From Candidatus Dadabacteria bacterium (GTDB lineage Bacteria > Desulfobacterota_D > UBA1144 > Nemesobacterales > CSP1-2), in assembly GCA_963805855.1 (NCBI GenBank), contig CAWDVW010000005.1, forward strand, positions 768,001 to 832,000: DNA of 64,000 nucleotides. Reading direction: 5' to 3'. A program made the position numbers and the translations under genes. A model generated the notes under the pieces. That model was given only the letters and a program-made list of their open reading frames with translations. It made no database searches and was not told the origin of the DNA. Below are positions 47,792 through 64,000 of this stretch, in pieces (positions within the stretch are counted from its first letter, which is position 1; the number at the start of each line of letters is the position of its first letter).

Positions 47792-47948
47792 ATTATTAAT
47801 ATAAAGCAATTTACTTAAGTTGTCAAGTAGTTTTTTAATTTAATTAATTAATTTGCTTTTGGTTAGTATTTTTTGGTAATTTTAGATAAAATTTTTAGTC
47901 GGCCATATTTAATGTACAGAGAAACTGAATGTTTTTCTTACAACAAGT

Positions 47949-48025
47949 GGGGATGTAGCTCAGACTGGGAGAGCGCCGCCTTCGCAAGGCGGAGGTCGGG
48001 GGTTCGAATCCCCTCATCTCCACCA
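47949..48025 (+). tRNA. tRNA-Ala(CGC)
   Basis: GGGGATG/CATCTCC acceptor with G3:U70, CCGCC-TTCGCAA-GGCGG, GGTTCGAATCC, CCA. Confidence 0.95.
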
Positions 48026-48082
48026 CTAAATTTTATATTAATTACCTTGAGTTAAAACAATTACATTAGTGTCCATAGTCTC

Positions 48083-48301
48083 TTAATTTGTGTCTGAGGT
48101 GTCCGAATAGGTGTCTATCGCAGCCGATTTTAAGCGATTTCCTGGCTTATAGATAGCGGATTTTTTAGCCTCTTCCCAGGTATGACTGTATCGCTGCAGC
48201 ATCCTCATATCTTTATGTCCAGATATAGCCATTACGGTTGCGTTATCTTCTTTTTCATCAACTATGAGGGTCGAGACAAAAGTATGTCTCATATCGTGAA
48301 A
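48083..48301 (-). pseudogene. C-terminal remnant of a tyrosine integrase
   Basis: FHDMRHTF...SGHKDMRMLQRYSH (box II); N-terminal part replaced by backbone repeat. Confidence 0.85.
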
Positions 48302-48306
48302 GCTTC

Positions 48307-48388
48307 CGGGGTAAGGTGATCTTGTATTACTACAGGGAGAAAACGCCTTCACGCCTGATATAGCGGGGTTAAAATGGCTAAACTGCAC
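48307..48388 (+). repeat. Island backbone repeat, copy A
   Basis: CGGGGTAAGGT...GAGAAAACGCC...TTAAAATGGCTAAACTGCAC. Confidence 0.8.
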
Positions 48389-48406
48389 GTCCGATTAATT
48401 GCGTTG

Positions 48407-48727
48407 TTAGATGTCATTGGTTTGTTTCCGACCTTTTTGATAGGGAACAAGAATCACTTTCTTATTACCCCAATAGATGATTAGGCCTAAAAACGCATAA
48501 CTGACAAGCGCTGGGATAAGCCACTCAAGACCTCGGAAGTACAGCAACATTGTAAAAACCAACGAAATGACAGCTATAAAGATACAGAAGGCTTGTCTGT
48601 ATTTTGTATCGGTATCGACCATGAACCTCCCTCGGCAATTGGGGCATATTCTGTAATTCTTGAAGAGGCCTTGGTGGCGAAGCTCCCTTAAACAAATCTC
48701 AATCTCGCAGTATGGACATGTTGTCAT
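48407..48727 (-). CDS. Small zinc-ribbon membrane protein; probable integron-type cassette gene
   Basis: CPYC...CPNC plus two TM segments; preceded by GTTAGGT; stop overlaps ATCTAAC. Confidence 0.75.
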   Translation of the reverse strand: MTTCPYCEIEICLRELRHQGLFKNYRICPNCRGRFMVDTDTKYRQAFCIFIAVISLVFTMLLYFRGLEWLIPALVSYAFLGLIIYWGNKKVILVPYQKGRKQTNDI

Positions 48728-48738
48728 CGAGAGATCAC

Positions 48739-48895
48739 ACCTAACTGTTAATTAGACTGCAATAATGCAGCATAATTCCCTATGAGGGATTTTATCCTGC
48801 AAATCGCTCTTCTAGTTGATACTAAGATAAATGTAATTTCTAGTCAATATGAATGTATAGGAAAAATGAGCTACCCCCATAATAAGTCCATAACG
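48739..48895 (-). promoter_or_regulatory. Promoter plus attI-like platform, copy 1
   Basis: TTGACT-17-TAGTAT, ends TAATTAACA-GTTAGGT; homologous to 62307-62466. Confidence 0.6.
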
Positions 48896-48986
48896 AGAAC
48901 TAGATTTTTGATGAGCAACGCTGTAGACAGGAACTCATCAGAGTAATTAGGAAGGATTACATTTGTGAAATTTATATAATTCCATA

Positions 48987-49826
48987 CTATGCCGCCTGCC
49001 ATCTAACCTCATACAGCCGCACAGGCTCATCGAAACCACGTAGCGGTATCTCACCCTGGTCGGAAAATGGCAATTTCTTGCCGATGCACAGATCTTGTAT
49101 TACACGTGTGACCAAAATCTGTTCAGGTTTAGCATGGTCACAGATGCGAGCAGCGAGTTGGACGGTGGAGCCAAATAGATCCTGGCCTCCCGTGACGGGC
49201 TCACCAGCAGTGATGCCAATGCGAAGGTGGATAGTAGCGATGGGCTCCTTATTATTACAAGAAGCAACAGCCCTTTGAATAGACATAGCACACTCTACAG
49301 CGCGAGAAACAGAGCAAAAGGAAACCATGAAACCGTCACCTGTGTGTTTAACTTCGTTGCCATCATGAGTCTTTATAACATCGCGAATAATGGCATCATG
49401 AGTACGAAGGAGTTCCATGGCTTTAGAGTCCCCGAGGCGTGTTGTTATAGTCGTGGAACCCTCCATATCCGTGAACATGATAGTGCGAAAGGCAGAGTCT
49501 ATTATTGGTACGTTACTGGTAGGCGCAGGCGACTTGGTTGGCATTGGCGGGTCCTCAATTCTTCCAAGGAACGCCTTCACGGCCCCAGGGTTGACTTCGA
49601 TGATTTCGCTGGGAACATGTCCATGAGCTTCATGGTGCATCTGCTCTACAGCTTGTTTTCTCGGAGCCTCTATTAAACAAAAAGTCGTACCATTTGCTTC
49701 ATCAAACCAATATGTCAGGGCCTTGCAACCATACTTGTCTTGGATTTCAAGATCTTTCTGATGGGCCTCTGCAACTTCAGTTGCAGTCGTGCCTTTGATG
49801 TCATGACGATCCATATAGATAGGCAT
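48987..49826 (-). CDS. DUF4242 (SCO4226-like) plus class III adenylate/guanylate cyclase
   Basis: MPIYMDRH..AHQKDL..FCLIEAP..HHEAHG; MFTDMEGST, KHTGDG, RIGI..GE, LAARI. Confidence 0.88.
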   Translation of the reverse strand: MPIYMDRHDIKGTTATEVAEAHQKDLEIQDKYGCKALTYWFDEANGTTFCLIEAPRKQAVEQMHHEAHGHVPSEIIEVNPGAVKAFLGRIEDPPMPTKSPAPTSNVPIIDSAFRTIMFTDMEGSTTITTRLGDSKAMELLRTHDAIIRDVIKTHDGNEVKHTGDGFMVSFCSVSRAVECAMSIQRAVASCNNKEPIATIHLRIGITAGEPVTGGQDLFGSTVQLAARICDHAKPEQILVTRVIQDLCIGKKLPFSDQGEIPLRGFDEPVRLYEVRWQAA

Positions 49827-50594
49827 TCGATCCTCCCTGTCTCAATAAAGGCGACCTGTCTAATTATTTTATACAGCTCAATTGGAAGCCTCACTTGCAT
49901 ATGCTCAATTTTTGCATTATCCAGTTTAGGTTGTTCCATAGTAGCTCATGATAATGTATGAGCGCATGTAGGTCAATGTCAGAGATAATAAATATAGAGT
50001 TTTAAAGCAACGCTTAAAATACAGTTTCGCTATTAACGCCGTAGAGATGTTTTAATCTGAAAAGTTACACTATAACCTCTCTTAAAAAAATCTTTTAACC
50101 TTGCTTTATAGACAAGCTATAACAAGCATTTCCAAGTCTTATTTTGAGTAGAAATATCTTACATTAAGTAGTACAATTGGTGGTTGAGATTTTAAGTCAG
50201 GGGAGAGCTACTATAGTGAATTGACCCATCTGTACTGATCCCCTTTTGTCAAGAAGGGTTTAAGTTGGAATTATGTGATTCATATCTCGTTCAAACTGGC
50301 TTTGCGAGCAAGAATCCGGGGAAATTGTACGGTTCCTATCGGTTTATATTGGTTTCTTTGCATTGTCCGTATTCTAAGAACCCGCGCTGCACACCATTTA
50401 GTATGGATTCAAGGTAAATAACTACTCCGGAAATGTATCATTAGCGATTCCCGCCCTAATGGTGTTTTCTATTTATTGTTAAGCTTCGTAGTTACGAAGG
50501 GGCAGTTCTTTTTTGATTCGTCAAATATTGTAATTCAAGGTATAAAACTTTAGTATACTTATATATAGCGTACAAAATCGTTAGGAGGATTGGA

Positions 50595-51638
50595 ATGAAA
50601 TTAACTAAACCGCATGTGTTCGCTTTTGTACTCCTCTTGTACCTTATGTCCATAGGGGGCTGTAACGATAGTGAGAATTCCGGTGATGCGAATGTTCCTG
50701 CTTTAGTACCTTTTGATTTGAATGTCGCTGTGGAGTTGGCGACCCTAAGCCTTGTAGCTTATGACCAGCGTCTTCAGTGTATTAGCGGAGGTAAGGATGC
50801 GATAACGGTACCGGAAGGTTTCAAATTACAGGAGGTAATTTATCAACAGGTCGATACTAGTACGGATAGTGGTTGTAAGGACGATCCTCAGATAATCCCC
50901 ATAGCATTTATCGCAACGAAAGATGATAAAATCTTTCTCTCTTTCAGAGGGACTGCAAGCGTTTCGGATGAACTTGCAGACGCGCTGATTGAGCAAGAGC
51001 CGTTTACGTTTTTTATGATGGCTCCAGCAACCAATGCAAAGGTACAGCAAGGTTTCAACGAAGTATACATGGAGATCCGGGGGCCTATATTTGAAAAGAT
51101 AGAAGCTTTATCGAATGAGATGCAAGACGATGTGTTCAAATACAATACCTTGTTTATTACCGGACACAGCCTGGGGGCCGCACTCGCGGTGCTTGCAGTA
51201 CCCGACCTTAAGGAGGGTATTGAAAATCTTCCTCCGGTGGTAATGTACAACTTTGCCGGACCGAGTGTAGGAAATCCTGATTTTGTAGATCTGTATATGC
51301 AATCTGTACGCTCAAGCTGGAGGGTGGTAAATACGAAAGACGTTATTCCGAAACTGCCCCCGACAACGCTGGATTGCGACAATTACAGGTATGAGCATGC
51401 AGCAGGTGAATGGGATATTAAATTCGGGCCTAATCTTCCAGCTCTGCCTAAATTCAGTTGCAAAAATATTGGTATTATACAAGCTCAGATTTTGGAATAT
51501 CTATCAGATAATGAAAAGAAGGTGGAGATAGATCACAGCATGTGTACGTACCATGACACTCTTTGTGAAGAGCTCGTGGGCAATGAAGATTGTGCGGATA
51601 CCACAGACAATTCGCTCCATTGCACCCAATCTGAGTAG
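50595..51638 (+). CDS. Class 3 lipase lipoprotein
   Basis: Lipobox-like GGC, SFRGT, GHSLG, DVIPKLP, C-terminal His. Confidence 0.88.
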   Translation: MKLTKPHVFAFVLLLYLMSIGGCNDSENSGDANVPALVPFDLNVAVELATLSLVAYDQRLQCISGGKDAITVPEGFKLQEVIYQQVDTSTDSGCKDDPQIIPIAFIATKDDKIFLSFRGTASVSDELADALIEQEPFTFFMMAPATNAKVQQGFNEVYMEIRGPIFEKIEALSNEMQDDVFKYNTLFITGHSLGAALAVLAVPDLKEGIENLPPVVMYNFAGPSVGNPDFVDLYMQSVRSSWRVVNTKDVIPKLPPTTLDCDNYRYEHAAGEWDIKFGPNLPALPKFSCKNIGIIQAQILEYLSDNEKKVEIDHSMCTYHDTLCEELVGNEDCADTTDNSLHCTQSE

Positions 51639-51705
51639 TCAGATCGAACTATCCCGAATTAATGTTGAAATAAGCGTTTACTTTTCTGTACTGCTTACTT
51701 TATTA

Positions 51706-52476
51706 TCAAGCAGCGTTTAAATGTACAGTATGATTTTTGCAATAATCCTCTTCCACCTGAATCGGCGAGCGGTATCCAAGAGCTGAATGAAGGTAATTCC
51801 GGTTGTAATAATCAACCCATTTATCCAGTCCCTTATTTAACTCCGCTTCACCCTTCCATTCCGTTAGCCAAAAGAGCTCTTCTTTCATTGTTCTTATCAT
51901 TCTCTCTGTATCTGCGTTTCCTTTAGGGTTATTGTAGCTCGTAAATACTTGCTGAACTCCCAGATTAGAACAGGTTTTAATAAAGCTGAGTGAAGTAGGC
52001 TGACTCCCGTTATCACTCATAAGCTTAAGTCCATGTCCTCTTACTCCTCCAGGGAACTCCCTGTTTAGTCCTTTCTCTAAAGCTTCCAGCCATTCTCTAC
52101 TTGTAGCTCTTGTTCCACTGTAGTGACCTACTATCTTCTTCGTATATCAGTCTAGTACTATTACAACATATACCCAGCCGCTGTCAGTGATAACCTTTGT
52201 CATATCTATTCCCCACCACTGCTTAGGCTTATTCGGTTTAGGCTTTGGTCTTTCTGACACTCTATTTGCTATTAGTCTTGGGTTAGGTTTTACAGTAAGG
52301 TTATGCTCTCTCATTAACCTGTATATACGCTTCTTGTTTATTATTAATCCATCTACAAATCGAAGATATGCCCATACTCTCCTGTAACCCCAGAAGGGAT
52401 GTTCTGGTTTTATATCTTTTATCCTTTCAAGTAAGTATTCGTTACGGAGACTTACAGAGTTTGACGGCATTCTCAT
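51706..52476 (-). pseudogene. IS3 transposase OrfB with in-frame TGA at 52147-52149
   Basis: VIVLD*YTKKIVG reads in frame into SDNG...NADTER. Confidence 0.85.
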
Positions 52477-52748
52477 ATAAACTCGTCGTCTGTTTTTTTT
52501 AATTCAACAGTGAGTGAGCCTATTATTTGTTTTAACTCTTTATTCTTCTGACGGAGGCGGTCTATTTCTCCAGTGTCTTTTTTAGAATCAAACGCCTTAT
52601 GAGCTTCGGATAGAAACTTGTCACGCCAAGTGTAGTATTGGTTTTGATGTATTCCGTACTCGTTACATATCTCTGAAACAGGTCGTCCTGACAAGCCTTC
52701 AAGTACTATCTTGGTCTTGGTTTTAGAATCCCATCTTCTTCGCTTCAT
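52473..52748 (-). CDS. IS3 transposase OrfA
   Basis: KIVLEGLSG..VSEICNEYGI..NQYYTWRDKF; ATGA overlap with orfB. Confidence 0.85.
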   Translation of the reverse strand: MKRRRWDSKTKTKIVLEGLSGRPVSEICNEYGIHQNQYYTWRDKFLSEAHKAFDSKKDTGEIDRLRQKNKELKQIIGSLTVELKKTDDEFI

Positions 52749-53043
52749 TGCTCCCTCTCCTTTTACCATAAAATTTACTAGCTTAATTCTACTAGCTTCT
52801 TAATGGGGAGCAGTATAAATCATCAAATGGCTCTTTTTTGAATCCATTTCTTTTTTTTAGCATGACGTATGGCCTGCAGTATACTTATGCGGGAGGAAAG
52901 TTTTAATTTCTTAGATTTGATATTGTAAATCTCTTTTGAAATATGTTATATTGCTTCCGAAAATTTAAAATCACAAACACATTCGCAAGATCAATCGCTT
53001 CATAGCTTGAACAAATTAATCGAGTCGTAAAGGAGGATAGGGT

Positions 53044-53877
53044 ATGACGCGGAAAGATTTCAAGATTCATTTTTTCAAATTTGAAAGCACAGTACCAAAA
53101 TTCCTTAATATCAAACTTTACCACATTAAAATAATCCTAATCTCATTTTTTGGACTCACGCTGGTATCACTTCTGTCGTTCGTTATTGCATACAAGTATT
53201 ACAAAAGAGCTGAAATAAGTACCAATCAGAAAAGAGAACTGGCCGACCAGCTAAAGAGTCAGTCAAACGTACTAGACGAAATGAGCAAGGATGAACTTGT
53301 ATTGAAATCCAGGTTAGTAGAAATCGAAAAGAAGCTCTTGGAAATGCAGGAGTTACTTGACAAAAAGGGGATAAACAAAGAATTGTCTGTCGGAGGTAAG
53401 TACATCCCGGCCGACGGACTGGAATTATCCTATCTTGATAACATGGAAAAGGATATATATGAGCTGTTTAATGTTATCAAGAGCTATCCCCTGGGTAAGC
53501 CCATGATACAGACCGCTATCAGATCGGGTTTTGGATATAGAAGGGATCCGTTCAAATCCAGACCGGCTTTTCACTCCGGAATAGACTTCGAAGCCAAACC
53601 TGGACAGCCAGTATTTGCGACGGCTGACGGATTAGTCGAAAAAGCGGGCTGGTACTATAGTTATGGCAACACGGTAATAATCAACCATGAAAACGGGTAC
53701 GAAACACTTTATGGACACTTAACAAGGGCAGATGTGAAAGAAGGACAAAGGGTGAAGAGTGGCGATCTTATTGGCAATGCAGGTTCCACTGGAAGGTCCA
53801 CTGGGACACACCTGCATTACGAAATAATAAAAAACGGCAAGAAGCTAAACCCCTCTAAGTACTTAAGTTTAAAGTAA
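53044..53877 (+). CDS. M23 family metallopeptidase
   Basis: HSGIDF, YGHL, STGTHLHYE; N-terminal TM and coiled coil. Confidence 0.93.
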   Translation: MTRKDFKIHFFKFESTVPKFLNIKLYHIKIILISFFGLTLVSLLSFVIAYKYYKRAEISTNQKRELADQLKSQSNVLDEMSKDELVLKSRLVEIEKKLLEMQELLDKKGINKELSVGGKYIPADGLELSYLDNMEKDIYELFNVIKSYPLGKPMIQTAIRSGFGYRRDPFKSRPAFHSGIDFEAKPGQPVFATADGLVEKAGWYYSYGNTVIINHENGYETLYGHLTRADVKEGQRVKSGDLIGNAGSTGRSTGTHLHYEIIKNGKKLNPSKYLSLK

Positions 53878-53909
53878 CTTTATTCTCAGCAAACTTATTT
53901 CGTAAATTT

Positions 53910-53996
53910 CTAGAGGGAATGCTCCCGGGTTTAGAAACATTCCCACTTTAAAGGAGGATAAAGGATGAAATGCGTTAAGTTGAAGGGCTAAGTGTA
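53910..53996 (-). ncRNA. Candidate sRNA 2, paralog of 47697-47791
   Basis: Perfect TTGACA(54031)-17-TATAAT(54008-54003) on minus strand; UCAUCCUUUAUCCUCCUUU; GGGAATG/CATTCCC stem. Confidence 0.6.
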
Positions 53997-54210
53997 ATAT
54001 CGATTATAAAGTAAGTTACTTAATGTGTCAAGAGGAAAAGTTCTTTCTCTTCTAATACCCCTAACTCGTTACAAAAAAGCTAATTTCTTCTTGAAAGTTG
54101 AACCCGCCATGATATACTGACCAAATCAACATATAAAAATTAAACCCTGCATCGAAAAACTATTAACAATCCTCATGTCGGTTTGAAACATACTCCAAAA
54201 TAGTAACCTT

Positions 54211-54282
54211 GGCGGCGTAGCTCAGAGGTAGAGCAGGGCTCTCATAAGGCCTTTGTCGGAGGTTCGATTCCTCCCGCCGCCA
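54211..54282 (+). tRNA. tRNA-Met(CAT), elongator-like; CCA not encoded
   Basis: GGCGGCG/CGCCGCC acceptor, CTCATAA anticodon loop, GGTTCGATTCC; Ile2 identity not excluded. Confidence 0.9.
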
Positions 54283-54325
54283 GTAATGATTTATCAATAC
54301 ATAAAGCTAGTTATATAGAAGTAGT

Positions 54326-55369
54326 TTAGAAATGAGTCTTGGGCATAACTAGCGAGGTGTCCGAGGAGGTGTCTATATCCGCTAATTCGACAGCCCTTTT
54401 CTTATGTTCTGGCGTCGGGTGAGAATACCGCTTTGTCATAGCTATTGTTTTATGTCCTAGCAACTCTTGAACCGTTACTATATCAACTCCAGCCATTATC
54501 CCTCTTGTAGCAAAGGTATGCCTCAAAGTATGGAATGTACAATGCGCGATTCCGGAACGCTTTAGAGCAGTTCCAAATGATCTATAAATATATTCTATTG
54601 GCTTTCCGTCCCTATAGGAGAATAGATATTCATCATCAGTATTATTTTTTAAGTCCACAAGAATCCTTGTTAGACGCTGGCTCATGGGAATAGCTCTTGA
54701 TTCATAGTTTTTACTATCCCTTACAATGATGTATCCATTCTCAAAGTCTATATCTTCCCACTTTAAGTTAAGAATCTCGCCTTTACGCATCCCCGTGGAT
54801 CTTGCTACAAAAAGTATCGGTTTCAGGTGAAGGGAAGCCGAATTATAAAGGAGTTGAAATTCTTCATCGCTAAGCACTCTAGGTTTCTCTAAAGGCGTCT
54901 TAAAAAACTTTACCCCCTTTACTGGGTTTTGATCTATTTTCCCCCAATGGATAGCCAGGTTAAATATCCTTTTGAAAACCGTCATCTCTCTATTTATTGT
55001 AGATAGAGCTTTACCTTCCTCTTTTCTAAAAGACTTATATTTCTCAACATGCCATGAAGTAATACTGCCAAGTGGCATTTTACCGAAATGTCTATTCAAT
55101 ACTTTACTTATGGTTATATCCCTCTTGTAGGAGCGATGATTGTCCTTTGCATAGTTTAAATATTCCTCCACGATCCGGCTAAATAGAATCGGCTTCATTA
55201 CTTTTTCTAACCCGAACTTACCTTGGACTATTTCCCCCACTCTTGCTTTTAGCGCTTTTTCTGCCGTTGATCTTGTTATCTTATCTATATGCCCTACGAC
55301 TTCTCTTTTACGTTTTCCATTATAGTAATAATCGATATACCAACGATTACCTTTAATATATACTCCCAT
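54326..55369 (-). CDS. Phage-type tyrosine integrase, intact
   Basis: N-terminal arm-binding-like WYIDYY; TGMRKGE, HTLRH, LGH, RY catalytic residues; converges on tRNA 3' end; no IntI-type insertion apparent. Confidence 0.95.
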   Translation of the reverse strand: MGVYIKGNRWYIDYYYNGKRKREVVGHIDKITRSTAEKALKARVGEIVQGKFGLEKVMKPILFSRIVEEYLNYAKDNHRSYKRDITISKVLNRHFGKMPLGSITSWHVEKYKSFRKEEGKALSTINREMTVFKRIFNLAIHWGKIDQNPVKGVKFFKTPLEKPRVLSDEEFQLLYNSASLHLKPILFVARSTGMRKGEILNLKWEDIDFENGYIIVRDSKNYESRAIPMSQRLTRILVDLKNNTDDEYLFSYRDGKPIEYIYRSFGTALKRSGIAHCTFHTLRHTFATRGIMAGVDIVTVQELLGHKTIAMTKRYSHPTPEHKKRAVELADIDTSSDTSLVMPKTHF

Positions 55370-55578
55370 TACTTAGACCTCCTACTTTTTATTTTTTGTA
55401 TTGGCAAAGAAGGCTCTTTAATTTCGTGGCCTTCTTGTTTCATTAATTCGTGGATTAAAGCCCTGATTACCTCGGATGCCGTTAACATGCTATCTTCAGC
55501 ATATTTATTCAGAAATTCCAACTCCTTTTCATGTAGCCAAACCCTAAATAATTTGGTTCTTAATCTCTTCTGTCTCAT
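55369..55578 (-). CDS. Ribbon-helix-helix/CopG-like DNA-binding protein
   Basis: FRVWL..KELEFL..YAE....TASEVIRALI pattern; coupled to integrase start. Confidence 0.65.
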   Translation of the reverse strand: MRQKRLRTKLFRVWLHEKELEFLNKYAEDSMLTASEVIRALIHELMKQEGHEIKEPSLPIQKIKSRRSK

Positions 55579-55735
55579 GTAACGATATTATAGCTACATA
55601 TCTTATGGTAGTCAAGTGTTGTTTTGAACCTTTCAACTAATAAGGGAATATACTTTATTGTGAGATGTAAACAATCTGAAAGAACGGCGATGTAATGTCT
55701 TTTCAAACTTCAAACAGTTAAACAAAAATGATATA

Positions 55736-56212
55736 ATGTACACCATGAAAGAAATAGCTAAAACCGATATAAAACTGTCAGATTTTCCACCTAAATTGAG
55801 GAAAATTATCGATTATATAGTAGAAAATAAGGATTTTTATGACTTGGATGAAGCTATCAGTCAACTTGGCTTGAATCCTCATTCTATATCTACTATGAAA
55901 AGCAGGTTGAAGAAAAAGGGAATAGTTTTAGAAGATTATATCTACAATAAGAGAAATGAGAGGATAAAAAAGTATGTCCCTTACGTTGATAATAGTTTGG
56001 TAAATAGGGCTATCTCAGGATCGGCTAAGCACCAGGAATTATTTTATAAGAGAACCGGTGAACTGGTAAACAAACATGAAATAGACTACAGGGTAACTGG
56101 CCTATTCGCAGTATTTAGTCCTGGCACTAAAATGCCAGCGAAATTGATAGAAGAGGATAAGGTCCTTAAACCTAATGGAGTGCAGATTATAGATGCAGAG
56201 ATTGAGGATTGA
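55736..56212 (+). CDS. HTH protein resembling phage terminase small subunits (phBC6A51-like)
   Basis: N-terminal HTH, then V.NSLVNRAISGSAKHQELFYKRTG oligomerisation-like segment. Confidence 0.5.
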   Translation: MYTMKEIAKTDIKLSDFPPKLRKIIDYIVENKDFYDLDEAISQLGLNPHSISTMKSRLKKKGIVLEDYIYNKRNERIKKYVPYVDNSLVNRAISGSAKHQELFYKRTGELVNKHEIDYRVTGLFAVFSPGTKMPAKLIEEDKVLKPNGVQIIDAEIED

Positions 56213-56753
56213 GGCCACTATATCTAGTAATTCAATCCAGGTTCGTATAAGAATCAATTATGTAAACTTTCCCCTCCCCTAACTTGCCTTAATTCCTACT
56301 AAATAAAAGTGGCATAAAATACCCTCAATATAATCATTGGTTCTAATGTATATTAATACGTTCTTATAGGATCAATACACCCTAGAATGGGTATTTATTA
56401 GCTGTAAAGGTATGTTCTTTTGATGATCTATGCCTTAAATAAACATAACTGACTATTATCTCTTTCCCTTCCAGAATCCTTAAACCCCAATATGTTGTGT
56501 TATATATCCCCAAATGCACATCACCTTATGACTCTATGCTATGATGCAACCACCATTTAAATTAAGGATTGAAGTAAAATTGTAGAGGATTTTTAATTGA
56601 AATGAATGATAAAGTGTTCCGGAAAATGAAGGGCGGGGGAGGGTATGAGAAGAAGCCACCGGAGTCTATGCGCCCATCCCCCTGGGGGTTGCCACCCCCT
56701 CCCCCCTCCCGTATACGCTATACCCCACCTCTTGATTAGGGCAAAAAAATTCT

Positions 56754-56873
56754 CGGGGTAAGGTTATGTATCAAATCAACGAGAAAACGCCTCTACGTCG
56801 GTTACAGCGGCGTTAAAATGGCTAAATTGCACATGCCAATACTTCACCTGGCGAACAATGTGAGATAGGTTTT
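56754..56873 (+). repeat. Island backbone repeat, copy B
   Basis: CGGGGTAAGGT..GAGAAAACGCC..GGCTAAATTGCACATGCCAATACTTCACCTG..TGTGAGATAGGTTTT. Confidence 0.85.
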
Positions 56874-57387
56874 TCATCACCGATTGTTAACGTTTTAGTC
56901 CGGATTAGTCACAGTATTCTAACTCTGCAAAATTTTACCTCCTTTCTTGTCTTGACCTCGTACGTGATGCTAATTGAAATATGCTTAATTCAGATATTTG
57001 CACGACAATTTGTTTGCCACAAAAAACACACCCAACATTCCTATTGACTCATAAGATTTAACTGTGATATAGTCTAGTTTCCGAAACGGGTATGCAGTAA
57101 TCATATAATCTAGTGGAGATGGGGGTAAAGTGATGATGTGGCAATTACTTGTGGTTACATTTCAGTGGATAGACCCTTCTAGTTTTATACCAATTCCAAG
57201 TCGTATCAACAAGCCCCACAAAAATATTAGGAAAGTTTTGTTCAAAACCAATCCTGTTAATACCTGTAGCACTTGGGGGGTGATTCCAATCGACAATGTT
57301 AGCCCCTAAGTTTGGTGACAACCAAACCGACGGGGATTACGAAGTCAGATGTAAAACTATGTAAAAAAATGATAGGAGGTGTATACC

Positions 57388-57804
57388 ATGAATCAATTTC
57401 CAAAGTGGCTTTTACATCGTGTGTTCTTTCCGTTGACCCTAGTGATGTTAACTAATTTGGGTGCTATATCAGGCGAACTACATGCATCTGTTGTCAACTT
57501 CGAACCAGGAGCCGTTCCAAGGGATAGAACGGCTGAATGTATGGTCACGAATGTAGGGAGCTCGACCAGGGAGGTCGGAGTACAAATCACCTCACTGCCC
57601 GAGACAATGGTACCTTTACTTACTGTAACGTTAGAACCGGGAGAAATAAGCGGTCTAGTAGTTGATATTTCCCCAGCATTTTCAGTTCTAGCTTATTGCA
57701 GCTTTTATTTTTCGGGTTCCAATTCTGATATGCGAGGCATAATTAGAGCGGTGGATCGATCAACCGGAGAGGCCATTGTTTTAGAACGTGCAGAGGCGCG
57801 GTGA
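57388..57804 (+). CDS. Secreted hypothetical protein
   Basis: AGGAGG RBS, signal peptide, two Cys, beta-rich. Confidence 0.7.
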   Translation: MNQFPKWLLHRVFFPLTLVMLTNLGAISGELHASVVNFEPGAVPRDRTAECMVTNVGSSTREVGVQITSLPETMVPLLTVTLEPGEISGLVVDISPAFSVLAYCSFYFSGSNSDMRGIIRAVDRSTGEAIVLERAEAR

Positions 57805-57814
57805 TGAGATTTTG

Positions 57815-57841
57815 AAAGGGGGCCTCGGCCCCCTTTTTGTT
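57815..57841 (+). terminator. Intrinsic terminator
   Basis: AAAGGGGGC-ctcg-GCCCCCTTTTT. Confidence 0.85.
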
Positions 57842-58091
57842 CGGTCTGATTATTAATTAAGGCAACTTAAAGAAGTCATTATAAAAGAGGAATGTACTGC
57901 TCCCCTTTTGTCAAGATGGGTTTAAGTTGGAAACATAAAGAATAAATGCTTTCAATAATCCATTTCCGAACTCATCTCGACCATTGACTATTACTTTCGA
58001 AATATTGTATTGTACTTGCGATGACGACGAGTGTAATTCATCCCTCTAGTCTCACCAAGTAAGTGTTGTTACATTTTCAAGGAGGAGAAAA

Positions 58092-58658
58092 ATGGGCTAC
58101 GGCAGAATACTTGCAAGCCTCACATTGACCGGGATTTTACTTGTTTTTTGCAGCCAGGCTGTCCTGGCTGGTCAGCAAGTCTTTGCAGCACGAGTGTGCG
58201 CAGGAGACGATACGGTCTTAGAGCCTTGCGACACCGGCGTGGATGTGAGCTCGGATTTCCTGGTAACAGGTTGGGACCAAGCTGAAGTGTATGCCTCGTC
58301 CGGAAAGCGGATCGTTCCGGAATCAGACGGAATTCGCATCAACAAGACGGGATTTTATCGGGTTGTGTTTGAGACCACGGTGTTATATAGCGCGAACGCC
58401 GTGGAACAGACTCCAGACACAGCGGGTAACCTTTATTTGCGCGACAGTGATGACCAATTCCTTGGTTCTTGCAGCACGGCCCCAGCGAAAGCGGCATCGC
58501 TGTTGGAGTGGGCCCAGGGATTCTTCGTAACAGAGTGCATCTGGTCAGGAACGCTTAAATTCGAGAAAGGTGATGTATTCAAGCTGTACTTTGTCTTGGG
58601 CAGTGAGCCCGGAGCGCCAAGCTCCGTTCAGGTTCGCCTCGATGTTAGTCGCTTGTAA
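58092..58658 (+). CDS. Secreted hypothetical protein
   Basis: AGGAGG RBS, signal peptide ending VLA, beta-sandwich-like pattern. Confidence 0.75.
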   Translation: MGYGRILASLTLTGILLVFCSQAVLAGQQVFAARVCAGDDTVLEPCDTGVDVSSDFLVTGWDQAEVYASSGKRIVPESDGIRINKTGFYRVVFETTVLYSANAVEQTPDTAGNLYLRDSDDQFLGSCSTAPAKAASLLEWAQGFFVTECIWSGTLKFEKGDVFKLYFVLGSEPGAPSSVQVRLDVSRL

Positions 58659-58749
58659 GCAGCGCAATTAGTGAATACGAACCGGGAGGACACTCCTCCC
58701 TCCGGCTCTTGCTCATAAAGCCCGCTGGCACGCTAACGAAAGTTTTCTA

Positions 58750-58888
58750 TATCTCACAGCCTCTGACAGGTGAAATCATGGTTGTTAAAGATTTCTCCAG
58801 GGAGAAAACACCTCCACGCCCTTCACAGCAGCGTAAAAACGGCTAAATTGCACATGCCAATACTTCACCTGACAGTCAACGTCAGTTA
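58750..58888 (+). repeat. Island backbone repeat, copy C, with imperfect inverted ends
   Basis: 31-nt exact match to copy B; left end TATCTCACA-N8-CAGGTGAA is the inverse of TTCACCTG-N8-TGTGAGATA in copies B and D. Confidence 0.8.
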
Positions 58889-59039
58889 ATAATTGGATGA
58901 CTCACCAAACAGAAAAGCCTTTCTTAATCTTCTATACCAAAATCGAGGGTTATTCATATTAGATATAAATAATTTAAAACTTCTCTTGACAAGCGTACCC
59001 GCAGCCTGTATTAGACTTATATAGGGAATAAACATAAAT

Positions 59040-59138
59040 AATAGTTCTAAACGATGAGGGCTACCCCGTTAGGGGACGCAAAGCCGTAGGTCTTAAGCAT
59101 TTGCTTAAGGTAGCTTGGTTGCCGAACTTAGAGCTATT
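59040..59138 (+). ncRNA. Cyclic di-GMP-I (GEMM) riboswitch, variant
   Basis: GGGGACGCAAAGCC..GGTCTTAAG..GGTAGC..GGTTGCCGAA core in a 5' UTR; flanking AATAGTTCTAA/TTAGAGCTATT stem. Confidence 0.8.
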
Positions 59139-59319
59139 GCCTTTCTTAGTTCTTCCTTCCCAATCAGCTCCCGGCTTTTCTTTCAATTAACAGCCCTTAT
59201 CAATTGGAAATGCGATTGGGGAGGTAATGCCTATTGAAAACTAAACGATTTAGGAGTGATAAGATCCGTAAGTGTGACTTGCCGAATTTTTCTTAATTTA
59301 ACAATGGGGGTATGGTTAC

Positions 59320-60270
59320 ATGTTAAATAAAAATTTAAAGTTTATTTTGATATTAGTCGCCAGTCTGGTTTTCCCGATTAAAGGTTGGGGAGGTGCTGTC
59401 CCTGCGTTTTTTAATGCTAAGACAGATGACGCCTCTTTCCAGCTTTATTATGTCTGGGACTTAAGGAATAGGGATAGTTATTTTCAGGTTTTTAATACTA
59501 GTGAGCTTCAGTCCGTTACAGTACATATCCAAGTATTTGATGCGACAGATGGGACCGAATCCAGTTGTGAAATTCGCGATTACTATGACACGTATACACC
59601 CAGGGACACTCATGTCTACAACCTTCGTAATTTAGATAGAAATAATGGGCACTTCTTGTTTCCCCCTTTTCCCGCGGACGGGTTCGGTTTTGTTGTGGTA
59701 ACTGTTGTTACAGGTGAGGAAGGCGTCGCTGTTCAGAATCCGGTCCTGATAGGTAACTTCAGGATAATAGATAATGCTGGCTATGAGTACAGATCAAATG
59801 CGGCAGGCTATCCTAATACCCTAGGCGAGGTGGCGCTACCTCCCCCAATTAGCACATATTCGTTCAACTTTAACAATGCTGATGGTAAGACATTTGCAGA
59901 TGTAGTTGGTATTGCAGTTTTTCATGCCGGTCCTGGTCCTGGGTTCAATCGTGTCATTGCAAATCCGACATATCGTGCGAATTTTGATGAAGTAACCATC
60001 ACTGATGAGAATGAAGACGCTGATATTTGTCCACCAGTTACATTTGCATGCGGGGCAGGGGCAGACTTTGATCTAGGTATTGACACTGCTGTCAAGAACA
60101 GCAAGGGTGTGAGCGTTATTTGCCCTGAGTCCCATATAGAAGATGTAGGTTTTGTTAAGCTCGAAGAAACCGAATCTAGTTCAACAACGGCAGACTTCTT
60201 TGTTGGATTTATAGGGCTTAACAACGGAGGTCGCACCGGAAGCATGGATTCTTTCACCGCGGTGCCGTAA
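59320..60270 (+). CDS. Secreted hypothetical protein (paralog of 60322-61341)
   Basis: Signal peptide; WDLRNRDSYFQVFN, DTYTPRDTHVYNL, GNFRIID motifs. Confidence 0.8.
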   Translation: MLNKNLKFILILVASLVFPIKGWGGAVPAFFNAKTDDASFQLYYVWDLRNRDSYFQVFNTSELQSVTVHIQVFDATDGTESSCEIRDYYDTYTPRDTHVYNLRNLDRNNGHFLFPPFPADGFGFVVVTVVTGEEGVAVQNPVLIGNFRIIDNAGYEYRSNAAGYPNTLGEVALPPPISTYSFNFNNADGKTFADVVGIAVFHAGPGPGFNRVIANPTYRANFDEVTITDENEDADICPPVTFACGAGADFDLGIDTAVKNSKGVSVICPESHIEDVGFVKLEETESSSTTADFFVGFIGLNNGGRTGSMDSFTAVP

Positions 60271-60321
60271 AAATTGTTCAGAGTTTATGTTTCAGAAGAT
60301 TTAAGAAGAGGAGAAATAACC

Positions 60322-61341
60322 ATGTTAAAAAATTCGAAAATAAAATCAATCGCTTTTGCGAGTATACTGGTTTTAATTATTGGATTTAGCCATTCTTATG
60401 AGGCCCGAGCACTGGAGCTATGTCCTGTTGGTTCGTTTGCGAATGGGGCAATAACTATTAACGTAGCGCCCGGCGTCTCTGATGTTGATTTTGTGGGTGG
60501 GCTTTTAGGCACGTTTGAAAGCAGTGGTAAAGGAAAGGTAGTTGGGGGTATTGATTGGCTATACAACAAAGATAATGAAAGTAGTTTTGAGACTTCTTCA
60601 ACTGCACCGCAACTTATTGGATATTGGAATCAAGATAAGAGGAGGAACACTTTTATTCAGGTTACAAATACCAATCAAGGCAGCCCCGTTTCACTTTCTA
60701 TAGAACTTTTGGATGAGAACTGCTTAGATCCCTTAAGTTTTTGTGATACGCTTTCGCCCGGAGACACACATGTCTATAACTTAGGGGGAATTAAGGTAAA
60801 AGAATTCAAAGAACCTATAATGATCACCAATGACGGAAGCGTTCTTGTAGATAATATTCAAGGGCATGAGGGGATTTTTGTGGTGACTCCGATTATTGAA
60901 TGTGGTGTAGACAGAAGGGCAATTGAGTTTCCGTTTTTGCATGGTGATATTCGAGTAATAGATGACAAAAATAAATTTGACTACGGAGCCAAAATGTGGG
61001 CGAGGGGCGCCAATACCTCTGGTTGCGAAGACCAAACCGGGGGGTTTAACATTTTAGATGGAACGGAATATTGTAAATTTCGAGACGTCCTGCCATCCAA
61101 ACTGAGTCAGGTCTTTTCGACTATTTCAAACCCGGTAAATGCTAGGTCTGATATAATTTTATTTGCCCTGACCGATTCATATTCGGACGATATTTACACC
61201 CCTTCTTCAAATTCATCATTTGTAACTTTTAACCCAGCTATTCTTGATGAGGACGAGCTTTCTTTGAGCTGTCTTGGAGAGACTGTGTGTTTTGCGAGAT
61301 TTGGATTAAATGAGACGATCCCAATAAGTAAGAAAAAGTAA
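60322..61341 (+). CDS. Secreted hypothetical protein (paralog of 59320-60270)
   Basis: GAGGAG RBS; RNTFIQVTN, DTLSPGDTHVYNL, GDIRVID motifs. Confidence 0.8.
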   Translation: MLKNSKIKSIAFASILVLIIGFSHSYEARALELCPVGSFANGAITINVAPGVSDVDFVGGLLGTFESSGKGKVVGGIDWLYNKDNESSFETSSTAPQLIGYWNQDKRRNTFIQVTNTNQGSPVSLSIELLDENCLDPLSFCDTLSPGDTHVYNLGGIKVKEFKEPIMITNDGSVLVDNIQGHEGIFVVTPIIECGVDRRAIEFPFLHGDIRVIDDKNKFDYGAKMWARGANTSGCEDQTGGFNILDGTEYCKFRDVLPSKLSQVFSTISNPVNARSDIILFALTDSYSDDIYTPSSNSSFVTFNPAILDEDELSLSCLGETVCFARFGLNETIPISKKK

Positions 61342-61541
61342 GATAGTCAGAAGGAGTGGGAAGGTTAGTCCTAGACCCTATACTCAAATGCCTTGCTTCT
61401 TGAGTTCTAATTTTATATTTATTGGATTTCTTATACTGCTCCCCACTGACACCCTTCAATATTTACCAACAACTCATCTCAAATAGGCTGTATACTATTA
61501 TTAGAATGAAATTAGTATGTGCATGGTGTGAGAGAGTTATT

Positions 61542-61609
61542 GCAGCGTTAAAATGGGCTAATTTCCACCTACCAATACTTCACCTGACGGACAATGTGAG
61601 ATAGGTTTT
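61542..61609 (+). repeat. Island backbone repeat, copy D
   Basis: GCAGCGTTAAAATGGGCTAATT..CCAATACTTCACCTGACGGACAATGTGAGATAGGTTTT. Confidence 0.8.
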
Positions 61610-61714
61610 GATTCCCCTTTCGTTAAGATTGGGTTAAGTCGGGTTTAATACACATTAATGCTATTGACTTAAACAAGTGAATTATGATATAGTGGTATCC
61701 ATAACGTCACAGAC

Positions 61715-62068
61715 ATGAAAAAGAAAGTCGAGCGTAAATTCCTAACAGGTCTAAAATTAAAGCCCTTAAAGTTGGTTGCTGCAACTCCTGTCGAGCTCTT
61801 TGGACATGTTACTTTAGTTGAAGGGTACGACCTACCGAGCTATATCGGTTGCCATGCACTAGTGGCCCTGCGTGACACACCTGGAAAAACAGTTGCAGTA
61901 CTGACTTCAGAGCATCGGCTGCAGACTCTATTAGAATCAGCCCTCGTCAGCGGTAACCTGATAGCTTTTTGGGGACAGAAACTATCTAGTCCTCCAACTC
62001 CTGCTGGGGGTACATGGATAGTGGACGTATACAGTATTGACCGTGTGATACTTTACAACTTCGTGTAA
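61715..62068 (+). CDS. Hypothetical protein
   Basis: 117-aa ORF with upstream TTGACT...TATAGT promoter-like sequence. Confidence 0.6.
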   Translation: MKKKVERKFLTGLKLKPLKLVAATPVELFGHVTLVEGYDLPSYIGCHALVALRDTPGKTVAVLTSEHRLQTLLESALVSGNLIAFWGQKLSSPPTPAGGTWIVDVYSIDRVILYNFV

Positions 62069-62306
62069 TTATCTTTTAAGTACTACAAAGCAGCAAGTGA
62101 GCAGTACTACTGCCGTCCTACCTATCAAAATTCCTCCTCATAGAGAAAATGCGTATCTAAAAGGTGGAATGCCTATTGGGATGGGAGCACAGAGTTGTAC
62201 TGCTCCCCTTTTATCAAGTTCGAGTTATGAAGAATGTAGTGTTTCCTCCGTTTCTCATCCGCCCGTTTCCGATTATGCCCACTAAGCCTATCTATTGCTT
62301 TACTCA

Positions 62307-62466
62307 TGGTCTTACTATAGGGGATAGGCCATTTTTGGTTTTTCCATATTTTCCCATTGACTAGAAATTACATTTATCTTAGTATTAAAAACAAGAGCGA
62401 TTTGCAGTATAACACCCCTCATGGGAAATCATACTACATTTTCTCACTGTAATTAATAAGTTATGT
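62307..62466 (+). promoter_or_regulatory. Promoter plus attI-like platform, copy 2
   Basis: 30-nt identity ATTGACTAGAAATTACATTTATCTTAGTAT with copy 1; similarity stops at GTTATGT (62460-62466). Confidence 0.6.
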
Positions 62467-62511
62467 GGCGGAGAGCGCGTCGCAACAACCGGATGATGAG
62501 GATAAGGTTAC

Positions 62512-63204
62512 GTGAAGTCTAACAGTGAAAGACACTTTTCGCAAAGGATCGGCTGGCTACGGGCGGCGGTACTGGGCGCCAACGACGGCATCGTATCTAC
62601 GGCGAGCTTAGTAATGGGCGTCGCAGCCGCCGATGCCGCGCGTGGAAATGTATTAATTGCAGGTGTCGCGGGGCTGGTTGCTGGTGCAATGTCAATGGCC
62701 GCTGGTGAGTATGTCTCGGTTAGCTCACAAGCCGACACGGAGAAAGCTGACTTACACCGAGAGCGACTTGAGCTTGAATCTAACCCTGAGTTTGAACGCC
62801 GAGAATTGGCTCGAATATACGTTGAAAGGGGCCTGGATTCTTCCCTTGCCAGCCAAGTAGCTGAGCAACTAATGAAACACGACCCACTAGCAGCCCACGC
62901 GCGCGATGAATTGGGCCTATCGGAGGCGCATTCTGCGCGCCCCGTTCAAGCGGCTTTAGCTTCAGCCGGCACCTTCGCCGTGGGTGCTGCTCTACCTCTC
63001 TTGATGGTGTTGATTGCACCGCCGAGATTACTCATGGCTTCTGTAGCAGGGAGTTCGTTGGTCTTTCTTGCCCTTTTGGGGTGCTTGGCTGCGCGTGCTG
63101 GTGGTGCCAACATGGTAATTAGCGCAGGTCGCGTTACTTTCTGGGGCGCACTGGCTATGGCCCTCACTGCCGGAATTGGAGCGCTGTTCGGAGCCGTAAT
63201 TTGA
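62512..63204 (+). CDS. VIT1/CCC1 family Fe/Mn transporter (cassette gene)
   Basis: WLRAAVLGANDGIVS, SMAAGEYVSVSSQ, HARDELG. Confidence 0.95.
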   Translation: MKSNSERHFSQRIGWLRAAVLGANDGIVSTASLVMGVAAADAARGNVLIAGVAGLVAGAMSMAAGEYVSVSSQADTEKADLHRERLELESNPEFERRELARIYVERGLDSSLASQVAEQLMKHDPLAAHARDELGLSEAHSARPVQAALASAGTFAVGAALPLLMVLIAPPRLLMASVAGSSLVFLALLGCLAARAGGANMVISAGRVTFWGALAMALTAGIGALFGAVI

Positions 63205-63221
63205 AAAGGAACAGGGCGGCC

Positions 63222-63280
63222 ACATAACAAGTCGCTGCAACAGACCAGCTAACGCTAGCTGCTGAACTCTGTCGTTATAC
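63222..63280 (+). other. attC site (59 bp)
   Basis: ACATAAC...GTTATAC, central CAGCTA-ACGC-TAGCTG hairpin; ACATAAC is the exact complement of GTTATGT at the cassette start. Confidence 0.8.
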
Positions 63281-63457
63281 GACTTAATTTGCAAATTATA
63301 AGGGTCAAACTAAAGGTATTAACCCCACACTCGCCCTACCCGAAAATTCTCAAGCCATCCCTCAAACTCAGGTGGTGAAATATATACCCGCTTGCAAGTT
63401 TTATGCTTTGAAATTTAATCCCAATTGAGAAGAAAATGGCCGTATACTTTTATTAGG

Positions 63458-63646
63458 ATGAAATTAGTCTGTGCCTGGTGTGAGAGTGTTATAGCAGGGC
63501 CAATAATAGGTATTGAGGGTGGTGATGAGGTAGCCCCTTTCATCTGCAAAGGCTGTTTCTACGAGGTGTTTGAGGAAGGCGATAAGGCAGATATTTCCGA
63601 GCTATATGCAGCGATACAGGCTAAGAGTGGAAGATATGAGAATTAG
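63458..63646 (+). CDS. Small CxxC...CxxC (zinc-binding) protein
   Basis: MKLVCAWC...ICKGC; 5' end duplicated at 61506. Confidence 0.6.
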   Translation: MKLVCAWCESVIAGPIIGIEGGDEVAPFICKGCFYEVFEEGDKADISELYAAIQAKSGRYEN

Positions 63647-63670
63647 GTCAGAGTATGAACGACATAATAA

Positions 63671-63874
63671 TTAGTTTCCGCAATTCGAGCATTTAAAATG
63701 GTTGGGATTCGATTTTATAAAATCTAGTAACTCATTAAGATCATCTATGGTTGGGATATCGTCTCGCAGGTGAACAGGTTTTTTGCACACGTTGCGATAT
63801 CTCGCTATTTCAATTTGATCTCTACCTCCCATTTCTGGAGAACTAACTCTAATTAAAAATTTATCAGCAGACAT
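63671..63874 (-). CDS. Small hypothetical protein, possibly degenerate zinc ribbon
   Basis: GGGGGAAG RBS-like sequence; C-terminal CSNC. Confidence 0.4.
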   Translation of the reverse strand: MSADKFLIRVSSPEMGGRDQIEIARYRNVCKKPVHLRDDIPTIDDLNELLDFIKSNPNHFKCSNCGN

Positions 63875-64000
63875 GATTTACTTCCCCCCAAGTAAGTAGG
63901 ACCAAAGCAGATTGTTGCTATATTATTACCTAATCGGGTTCATTGGGTCTACCCCTCTCTGTCAAGCCCAGCCTAAGTTGAAATCATAGAGAATGTAACC

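Follow-up and report, generated by a model that had tools for sequence, protein, structure and literature searches.

Probable integron relics in a Candidatus Dadabacteria genome: promoter-attI platforms without an integrase, one of them followed by a VIT1 gene cassette

The stretch of DNA described here, called the window, comprises 64,000 nucleotides (nt) of a Candidatus Dadabacteria genome (assembly GCA_963805855.1, contig CAWDVW010000005.1, positions 768,001 to 832,000) and corresponds to G000:C5:768001-832000, where G000 is the window's own genome (3,114,175 bases, 9 contigs, 93.84% complete). The other G-numbers used below denote genomes of relatives, C-numbers denote contigs, and L-numbers denote fetched loci or contigs. 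The window holds two homologous segments that an initial annotation had described as integron platforms without an integrase, that is, a promoter and an attI-like recombination site, each followed by a different gene: a VIT1 gene on the plus strand and a gene for a zinc-ribbon membrane protein on the minus strand. By definition, the first bases of a gene cassette are complementary to the R'' box of its own attC site, and this rule is used throughout the comparison.

The two platforms of the window and the genes behind them

In a repeat search of the window the two segments form an inverted repeat (48748-48865 and 62339-62456) of 118 nt with 81% complementarity, and pairwise alignment places inside this pair an identical 30-nt run, ATTGACTAGAAATTACATTTATCTTAGTAT, which includes the motif TTGACT-17-TAGTAT (62357-62385 and, as its mirror image, 48847-48819). 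Similarity stops at a short core, GTTATGT at 62460-62466 versus GTTAGGT at 48745-48739 on the minus strand. The homology, the shared motif and the loss of similarity at a GTT core are therefore as the initial annotation had them. The features of the two platforms (P1, before the VIT1 gene, and P4, before the zinc-ribbon gene) are the following.

62330-62347, minus strand: remnant of intI, which encodes the integron integrase, start codon and about five codons (MEKPK..), read by eye against the intI 5' ends of G009:C73 and L137
62357-62385, plus strand: Pc-like (cassette promoter-like) sequence TTGACT-17-TAGTAT, oriented towards the cassette and agreeing with the consensus at 9 of 12 positions in a promoter scan
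62399-62466, plus strand: attI with four IntI-box-like repeats, GCAGTATAAC, inverted TCATACTAC, CACTGTAAT and the core GTTATGT (62460-62466)
62461-63274, plus strand: VIT1 gene cassette in its linear form, with a coding sequence at 62512-63204 (230 amino acids; Pfam VIT1, 232 bits)
63222-63280, plus strand: attC of the VIT1 cassette, with R'' ACATAAC, L'' GCT-G-CAAC, L' GCTGAAC and R' GTTATAC
48739-48880, minus strand: platform P4, with core GTTAGGT (48745-48739), -10 box (48824-48819), -35 box (48847-48842) and a shortened intI remnant
48407-48727, minus strand: first gene behind P4, a 106-amino-acid zinc-ribbon membrane protein without a Pfam family
48406-48412, minus strand: ATCTAAC over the stop codon of that gene, a candidate attC stump with one mismatch (6 of 7) to the complement of the P4 core

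To the left of the -35 box in the window copies, the other strand reads ATGGAAAAACCAAAAATG, the first five codons (MEKPK) of intI in relatives, and in P1 some 10-12 nt separate the -35 box from the start codon of intI, which is on the opposite strand. On sequence evidence, the platform includes an attI with insertion at the G|TT of a GTTRRRY core, and in P1 the crossover would fall after G62460. Next to the GT(A/C)TAA boxes, the 3-5 flanking bases vary from one attI type to another but agree within one platform (GCA.., TTC.., TCC.. and GCT.., read by eye), which would look like the pattern expected of binding sites for co-evolving integrases. In class 1 integrons, the 5' conserved segment consists of intI1, Pc and attI1, the latter with the direct repeats DR1 and DR2 and a simple site ending in GTTAGGC. 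Compared by layout, the platforms share with this segment the divergent intI and (here predicted) cassette promoter, four box-like repeats, an inverted pair about 6 nt apart that ends in GTTRRRY, and a crossover after the G; unlike in class 1, the promoter lies in the spacer between intI and attI and not inside intI, and repeats 1 and 2 are a long inverted pair around a palindromic spacer.

The cassette rule holds exactly for VIT1, since ACATAAC (63222-63228) is the complement of the core GTTATGT at 7 of 7 positions. The attC was searched for with two covariance models, neither of which contains a site from the own genome: R1 was built from the 8 shortest of 14 attC sites (a MAFFT alignment of all 14 misaligned their 3' halves), and R2 from 31 sites of relatives and metagenomes. 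Sites kept out of the R1 training score 32-40 bits. In the window, R1 gives a single match at E ≤ 10, located at 63222-63280 on the plus strand (E 5e-6 at 32 bits, spanning the entire model and including the bulged G in L''), and R2 likewise finds this site as its sole window match (32.4 bits, E 1.7e-5). Among the candidates scored in the whole genome, the site is the only R1 match at E ≤ 1 (E 2.4e-4), and the only other R2 match is C4:38502-38604 (15.7 bits, E 6.9). The complete 59-bp attC proposed by the initial annotation is thus recovered by two lineage-derived models trained on other genomes, a match whose absence that annotation had named as refuting its reading, and its being the sole significant genome match of these models indicates that VIT1, an open reading frame with an attC whose R'' is complementary to its first bases, is a true gene cassette. 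A scan by hairpin energy was tried as an attC detector and did not distinguish the VIT1 site, and a motif search by regular expression was too strict.

The G+C content of VIT1 is 0.52-0.57 in profile windows over the gene, against about 0.36-0.43 on either side. Close homologues, 65-72% identical, occur only in a sister family, at loci with a G+C content of 0.51-0.56, while the cassette is absent from the congeners, where the best match is 27-28% identical and belongs to a different resident VIT1. None of five loci of close homologues in the sister family (f8) has an attC match better than E 1, and these homologues look like resident genes.

The junction between the platform and VIT1 is bridged in contigs of four marsh or soil DNA runs (X1, X3, X4 and X7), and none of these four contains a joint that skips the VIT1 cassette, that is, an empty-site form. 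The X7 strain, 98% identical over 62327-63467, carries 5 of its 24 differences inside the 59-nt attC, suggesting relaxed constraint on this site. The 1887-nt X7 marsh contig also holds a second platform copy (window 62357-62422, at about 63613), inverted and beyond a small zinc-ribbon gene, so that the arrangement differs between close strains. This small gene (MKLVCAWCE..., 63458-63646, within the segment 63434-63646) follows the VIT1 attC in the window, and 1.95 kb upstream, at 61481-61545, lies a truncated copy of its 5' part with 88% identity; the segment with P1 and VIT1 thus lies between two starts of the same gene.

The zinc-ribbon gene behind P4 has a weaker claim to cassette status. 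Homologues were found in 0 of the 14 other family genomes. The inverse core that the initial annotation placed over its stop codon does overlap that codon; however, ATCTAAC matches the core at only 6 of 7 positions and nothing attC-like follows. The proposed attC stump found no support in an unfiltered R1 run over 48389-48470, all scores lying below 0 bits, and cassette status is not supported for this gene.

Copies of the platform in the genome, in relatives and in metagenomes

The genome contains five copies of the module, which share one attI type (type 1).

P1, C5:830300: the VIT1 copy
P2, C6:136189
P3, C2:266847
P4, C5:816738, minus strand: the zinc-ribbon copy
P5, C4:38028

Their similarity ends at a single alignment column (GTTAT, GTTAG in three copies, GTCAT); the -35 box is identical in all five and the -10 box is TAGTAT in four. 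The module is found in 8 of 15 family genomes, G000 counted, and a pattern scan of metagenome contigs returned 69 contigs, 58 of them module-like by regular expression. The 24 aligned copies of the own genome and relatives have a promoter-like TTGAC-17-TAnnnT followed by about 70 conserved nt, and all diverge after AGTT; the promoter sequence is kept across genera. Over the 72 copies with a GTT call (53 of them distinct) from the own genome, relatives and metagenomes, mean pairwise identity falls from 0.72 in the 15 nt before the GTT to 0.52 in the next 4 nt and 0.26 beyond, and the consensus after the GTT in the 53 distinct copies is AGGC, which fits the canonical GTTRRRY. Divergence at positions unrelated to the GTT, which would have spoken against an integron origin, is therefore not what the 53 distinct copies display.

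The relation between the core and the first attC behind it holds beyond the window. Cores could be assigned in 20 of the 24 aligned copies of this genome and its relatives, and the exact inverse 7-mer lies within 1.5 kb in 8 of these 20, compared with a reckoned chance expectation of about 1.8; the sites found by this inverse core are canonical attC hairpins in G004, G005, G006, G007 and G010. Among metagenome loci (the cores of L108 and L136 being read by eye), 19 have a same-strand attC downstream, and in 10 of them the R'' of the first attC is exactly complementary to the core. After duplicates are collapsed, 7 of the 16 loci that remain show this, whereas permutations give 1.13 and none of 20000 reached 7; 54 of 64 variable positions match. 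Different cassettes thus begin at the same GTT in other copies, in relatives as well as in metagenomes, which was one of the checks suggested at the outset. In the own genome, the cassette behind P5 is common to G005 and G006 at 90-93% identity. When G000, G005 and G006 are aligned, homology stops precisely at the G|TT in the R' box of a degenerate attC, and G005 keeps an R' GTTATGC that is complementary to the R'' GCATAAC of the cassette.

Some copies vary in structure. The platform of L019/L043 (G009:C73:14650-14730) is a short form without the stretch between the two GCAGT repeats, as if it had been deleted through recombination between boxes 1 and 3, and the platform of L021 has box 3 duplicated. 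In G007 (L047 = G007:C51; L048 = G007:C19), a second integrase-less platform lies in tandem at the far end of the array of a degenerate integron.

One rival explanation is that most fusions of a platform to a gene without attC are products of IntI-catalysed recombination between attI and a secondary site that is not an attC; promoter and attI would thereby have come to stand before ordinary chromosomal genes, the platform acting as a portable promoter. The own genome has eight platforms versus one or two attC sites, a same-strand attC lies downstream in only 19 of the 58 module-like metagenome contigs, and copies without an attC also diverge exactly at the GTT. Off-site activity of integrases has been published, namely the insertion of cassettes outside att sites by recombination of attC with genome sites (10.1101/2022.09.11.507474, in the available excerpt); this is likewise a route to integron junctions without a second canonical site, unlike the attI reaction with a secondary site that would have to be assumed here. 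On the other hand, short contigs and attC decay account for the same counts, the models may miss divergent attC sites, and neither a reciprocal junction nor a rearrangement scar was identified, all of which makes this explanation distinctly unlikely.

Integrases, tRNA islands and the MITE-like repeat

An integron integrase, which carries an extra domain near patch III, was recognized as a protein above the 265-bit cut-off of TIGR02249. No intI is present in the window, as first described, and none was found in the genome either: 0 of 14 TIGR02249 matches in it pass the cut-off, the best reaching 88.3 bits, and none passes in two congeners. The intact island integrase of the window is likewise not an IntI, as had been stated, since it scores 82.8 bits. 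Proteins above the cut-off are encoded by 4 of the 15 genomes of the family and by 5 of the 120 of the phylum, and only two of the five phylum places have a full-length, stop-free IntI (G014:C47 and G025:C1).

The module does lie beside intI elsewhere, a second check suggested at the outset. The metagenome locus L137 has an intact open reading frame of 330 amino acids (TIGR02249, 480.1 bits) that starts about 55 nt from the module on the opposite strand. L126 and L082, two further metagenome loci, have another full-length intI beside the module (457.2 bits in L126), L082 having the downstream sequence of L126; three of the 58 module-like contigs are thus of this kind. In G009:C73, an intI remnant (amino acids 1-120) lies on the opposite strand, 9 nt from the module. 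G014 has an intact integron (IntI, 484.9 bits) that has diverged in sequence, with its parts in the same order as in the module: promoter, repeat, palindromic spacer, inverted repeat, repeat, 6 nt and GTTAGGC; the attC at the end of its first cassette has GCCTAAC as R''. The neighbourhood could be assessed for 44 metagenome modules: a full-length intI accompanies 3 of them and a remnant 12, while 29 lack both. The remnants measure 32-120 amino acids in relatives and 33-49 in metagenomes, where some copies have none, and these many different lengths indicate that intI was truncated many times. With about five intI codons left, the window locus is not a complete integron; nor is it an In0, given the missing intI and the cassette present, or a CALIN (a group of attC sites with no integron integrase), which needs at least two attC without intI, while one attC lies in the window and the 15.7-bit site on another contig.

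These neighbours also bear on the idea that the module is no recombination site at all and is instead regulatory, as a cis-regulatory RNA in a conserved 5' leader or as a repressor site (operator), or else marks one end of a transposable element whose promoter faces outward. Such an element might be of the hairpin-ended IS200/IS605 type or a PATE, kinds recognized by subterminal hairpins at both ends, a fixed target or cleavage tetranucleotide and a related TnpA in the genome. Two alternative hairpins can be drawn in it, GCAGTATAA/TTATACTGC and ACTGCA-TTTTT-TGCAGT, and a repeat resembling a miniature inverted-repeat transposable element (MITE) abuts four of the five copies. Nevertheless, the variation at one stem position (T/G/G/C in the own copies) has no compensating change, and an Rfam search of 47800-64000 at E ≤ 1 returned only two tRNAs and one c-di-GMP-I riboswitch, with no match, and so no family, on either platform. 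The complementarity of core and inverse core would also be left unexplained, as would the constant adjacency to intI or its remnants, which largely refutes this idea and leaves it highly improbable.

The tRNA-island setting described at the outset is borne out, since four of the five copies have a tRNA gene at a distance of 0.25-8 kb. P2 follows tRNA-Asn by 250 nt; P3 lies 1.1 kb after tRNA-Thr and just past a repeat of the tRNA 3' end, P4 0.9 kb from tRNA-Ala and beside an integrase remnant, and P1 8 kb from tRNA-Met. A 62-nt repeat of the tRNA-Met 3' end is found at C5:835386-835447, about 3.4 kb past the end of the window, which places P1 inside an island of about 13 kb. The island genes and the MITE-like repeats are the following.

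47949-48025, plus strand: tRNA-Ala
48083-48388, minus strand: C-terminal remnant of an island integrase
54210-54283, plus strand: tRNA-Met
54326-55369, minus strand: intact phage-type island integrase, not an IntI
62196-62329, plus strand: MITE-like repeat (D2ext) left of P1, whose right end (..GGCAGGC in full copies) abuts the intI remnant
48874-48963, minus strand: 3' part of the MITE-like repeat, left of P4
50231-50270, 57893-57932, 61605-61644 and about 63940-64000: further MITE fragments in the window
C4:16352, C6:171625 and C5:831960: MITE copies in the own genome

The MITE-like repeat is about 190 nt long (TGTACTGCTCCCC ... GGGGGGCAGGC) and has at least 15 copies or fragments in the genome. 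In P1, P2, P4 and P5 it ends directly at codon 5 of intI, and solo copies share this right boundary. Platforms in G007 and G010 also have similar inverted-repeat ends beside them; among the fetched contigs of relatives and metagenomes, the MITE itself lies beside a platform only in L067, a contig of G010, and the MITE junction therefore looks specific to a few lineages. In P5, the 3' part of attI and the cassette are orthologous in three congeners, while the part with promoter, remnant and MITE differs in G000; such an exchange inside a platform means that the shared MITE junction could spread without an integrase.

Four further intI remnants, all N-terminal, are present in the genome outside the window.

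C5:443598-443810: amino acids 2-72
C5:986622-986702: amino acids 1-27
C7:542817-542921: amino acids 1-29
C2:189402-189503: amino acids 6-38

Behind three of them, as read by eye, comes an attI that belongs to the G007 or the G014 type or to a degenerate form of type 1, with first genes for a 405-amino-acid bicupin, a 137-amino-acid membrane protein and a 208-amino-acid unknown protein. Behind the fourth lie a promoter and a gene that was read by eye as ferritin-like, and no attI is visible there. G006 has a relic at a locus that is empty in the own genome (C5:447.7-448.0 kb).

The window contains other repeated and regulatory elements. An adenylate/guanylate-cyclase gene (SCO4226-like and Guanylate_cyc), at 48954-49981 with its upstream region, is 99% identical to C6:170436-171463. 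A MITE copy marks the end of this identity, and the segment therefore seems to have been duplicated or exchanged recently between two islands. The c-di-GMP-I riboswitch (RF01051, 43.5 bits against a gathering score of 35), at 59049-59126 on the plus strand, lies in the tRNA-Met island upstream of two genes of the same island, 59320-60270 and 60274-61341, neither with a Pfam family. A direct repeat of about 87 nt (D1) has four copies (48337-48423, 56781-56867, 58802-58888 and 61517-61603), 61-82% identical to a reference copy, the first of which is shortened and joins the 3' end of the zinc-ribbon gene to the truncated island integrase. Additionally, an insertion sequence at 51702-52817 is 81.5% identical to C6:175828-176948 and has two overlapping transposase reading frames on the minus strand (52473-52769 and 52147-52476 / 51706-52020), the second of which appears split.

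Origin and meaning of the platforms

The homology to real integrons, the cassette junctions at the GTT and the attC of VIT1 are established by the comparisons above. Both segments of the window are very probably the intI-proximal platforms of a lineage-specific class of chromosomal integrons from which intI has been lost. In this explanation, a platform would consist of the first intI codons on one strand, a sigma-70-type promoter reading away from them and an attI of about 70 nt with four boxes ending at the GTT. An integron integrase would once have placed circular cassettes at the G|TT by recombination of attI with attC, the VIT1 gene and its attC representing one such captured cassette. 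Every platform in the genome, five of type 1 and at least three of two other attI types, appears to have lost intI. The platforms may now act as fixed promoters or leaders for whatever gene comes next, their spread and reshuffling being probably driven by MITEs, islands and homology, and cassette capture could presumably resume only with an IntI supplied from elsewhere.

The initial annotation had offered two readings, relics of integrons without intI and islands with landing pads loaded in trans. The former is supported by the adjacency to intI, the layout in G014, the core rule and the attC, while the latter is only hinted at in metagenome contigs. The platforms would, in the second case, still be working sites, loaded and unloaded at present or recently by an IntI encoded on some other replicon, on a transiently present element or in genome sequence missing from the assembly. 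Such loading could account for a VIT1 cassette that is absent from both congeners, has a foreign G+C content and matches the core exactly, and for four own copies with one MITE|intI-codon-5 junction and different first genes. In the metagenomes, L080 and L081/L128 are nearly identical over about 300 nt upstream, including about 110 nt beyond a 45-amino-acid intI remnant, and diverge right after AGTT; in L111, the first gene of L080 stands behind a different platform, whose attI differs from that of L080 at several positions. No attC was detected, however, behind the genes of L080, L081, L111 and L128, and the own genome has only one solid attC. The lack of an IntI above the cut-off in the three genomes of the genus speaks against present activity, as do, for loading in general, the absence of an empty-site joint in the four DNA runs and the 5 of 24 differences that the 98%-identical marsh strain has in its 59-nt attC. 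Moreover, the part of P5 with promoter, remnant and MITE has been swapped while attI and cassette remained orthologous, so that ordinary recombination can spread a junction. Loading in trans is accordingly possible, though unlikely.

Several points also weigh against the relic explanation. The genome is 93.8% complete and in 9 contigs, and an intI could sit in the missing part. Promoter activity is predicted from the 9/12 consensus match and from conservation; a look for RNA runs containing the stretch found none. The attC models were made for this work from sites of relatives picked by R boxes and folding, and are not the model of IntegronFinder, and the whole-genome RNA searches scored about 150 of 329 first-look candidates. 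Of sequences with a shuffled interior, 11% reach the hairpin energy of the VIT1 attC. Four of the five type-1 copies have no significant attC behind them, P5 reaching only 14.6-15.7 bits: R1 with filters off on L002-L005 and L010 found nothing significant behind P2, P3, P4 and F1 (L010), and only P5 gave a match, of 14.6 bits. For the other three attI platforms, the whole-genome scans gave nothing significant nearby, and no separate search was made.

Loss of intI with frozen cassettes is already known, and what an integron is stays unchanged by these observations. In Xanthomonas, intI was lost repeatedly and in a lineage-specific manner by stops, frameshifts and large deletions (Gillings et al. 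2005, as summarised in 10.1101/2025.06.18.660453). As here, the attI side and the cassettes remain after the loss and become fixed; unlike here, that summary describes a single ancestral locus next to ilvD with arrays of many cassettes, whereas the Dadabacteria genome has at least eight platforms in 3.1 Mb, mostly in tRNA-linked islands, with one or two attC sites, an intI cut to a few codons and a MITE-like repeat at the break. According to the available excerpt of Cury et al. 2016 (PMC4889954), CALIN and single attC sites may originate when one integron among several loses its intI, and attI is unknown for most integrons and hence cannot be searched for. These elements resemble the platforms in being integron parts without a neighbouring integrase; in contrast, a CALIN as defined in that excerpt needs at least two attC and ignores attI, while here attI and promoter are retained and the window locus has one attC. 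The literature matches listed contain no account of Dadabacteria integrons or of orphan attI platforms; the phrase "integrase-less integron" occurs among them in a Corynebacterium diphtheriae preprint. What appears to be new is a traceable module of attI and promoter in a little-studied lineage, with many integrase-less copies per genome and more platforms than attC sites.

The set of loci provides a defined four-box attI with its cognate intact IntI (L137), a natural series of intI decay, and a concrete case for testing trans loading after integrase loss (L080 versus L081/L128). As a tentative and rather doubtful extension of the relic explanation, the front end of promoter and attI might be a unit of its own, which would persist and multiply after loss of intI, ride tRNA islands beside the MITE, be served in trans by rare integrases and perhaps fuse to genes that are not cassettes through recombination of attI with secondary sites, orphan platforms then being its commonest state and not debris. 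If so, orphan attI platforms would escape current integron finders, which do not search for them. In this lineage, orphaned front ends far outnumber complete integrons (3 of 44 metagenome modules with a full-length intI and 0 of about 8 own platforms). Integron surveys search for intI and attC, and tracing attI and promoter, which are conserved enough across genera to be followed alone, reveals a hidden population of integrase-less platforms.

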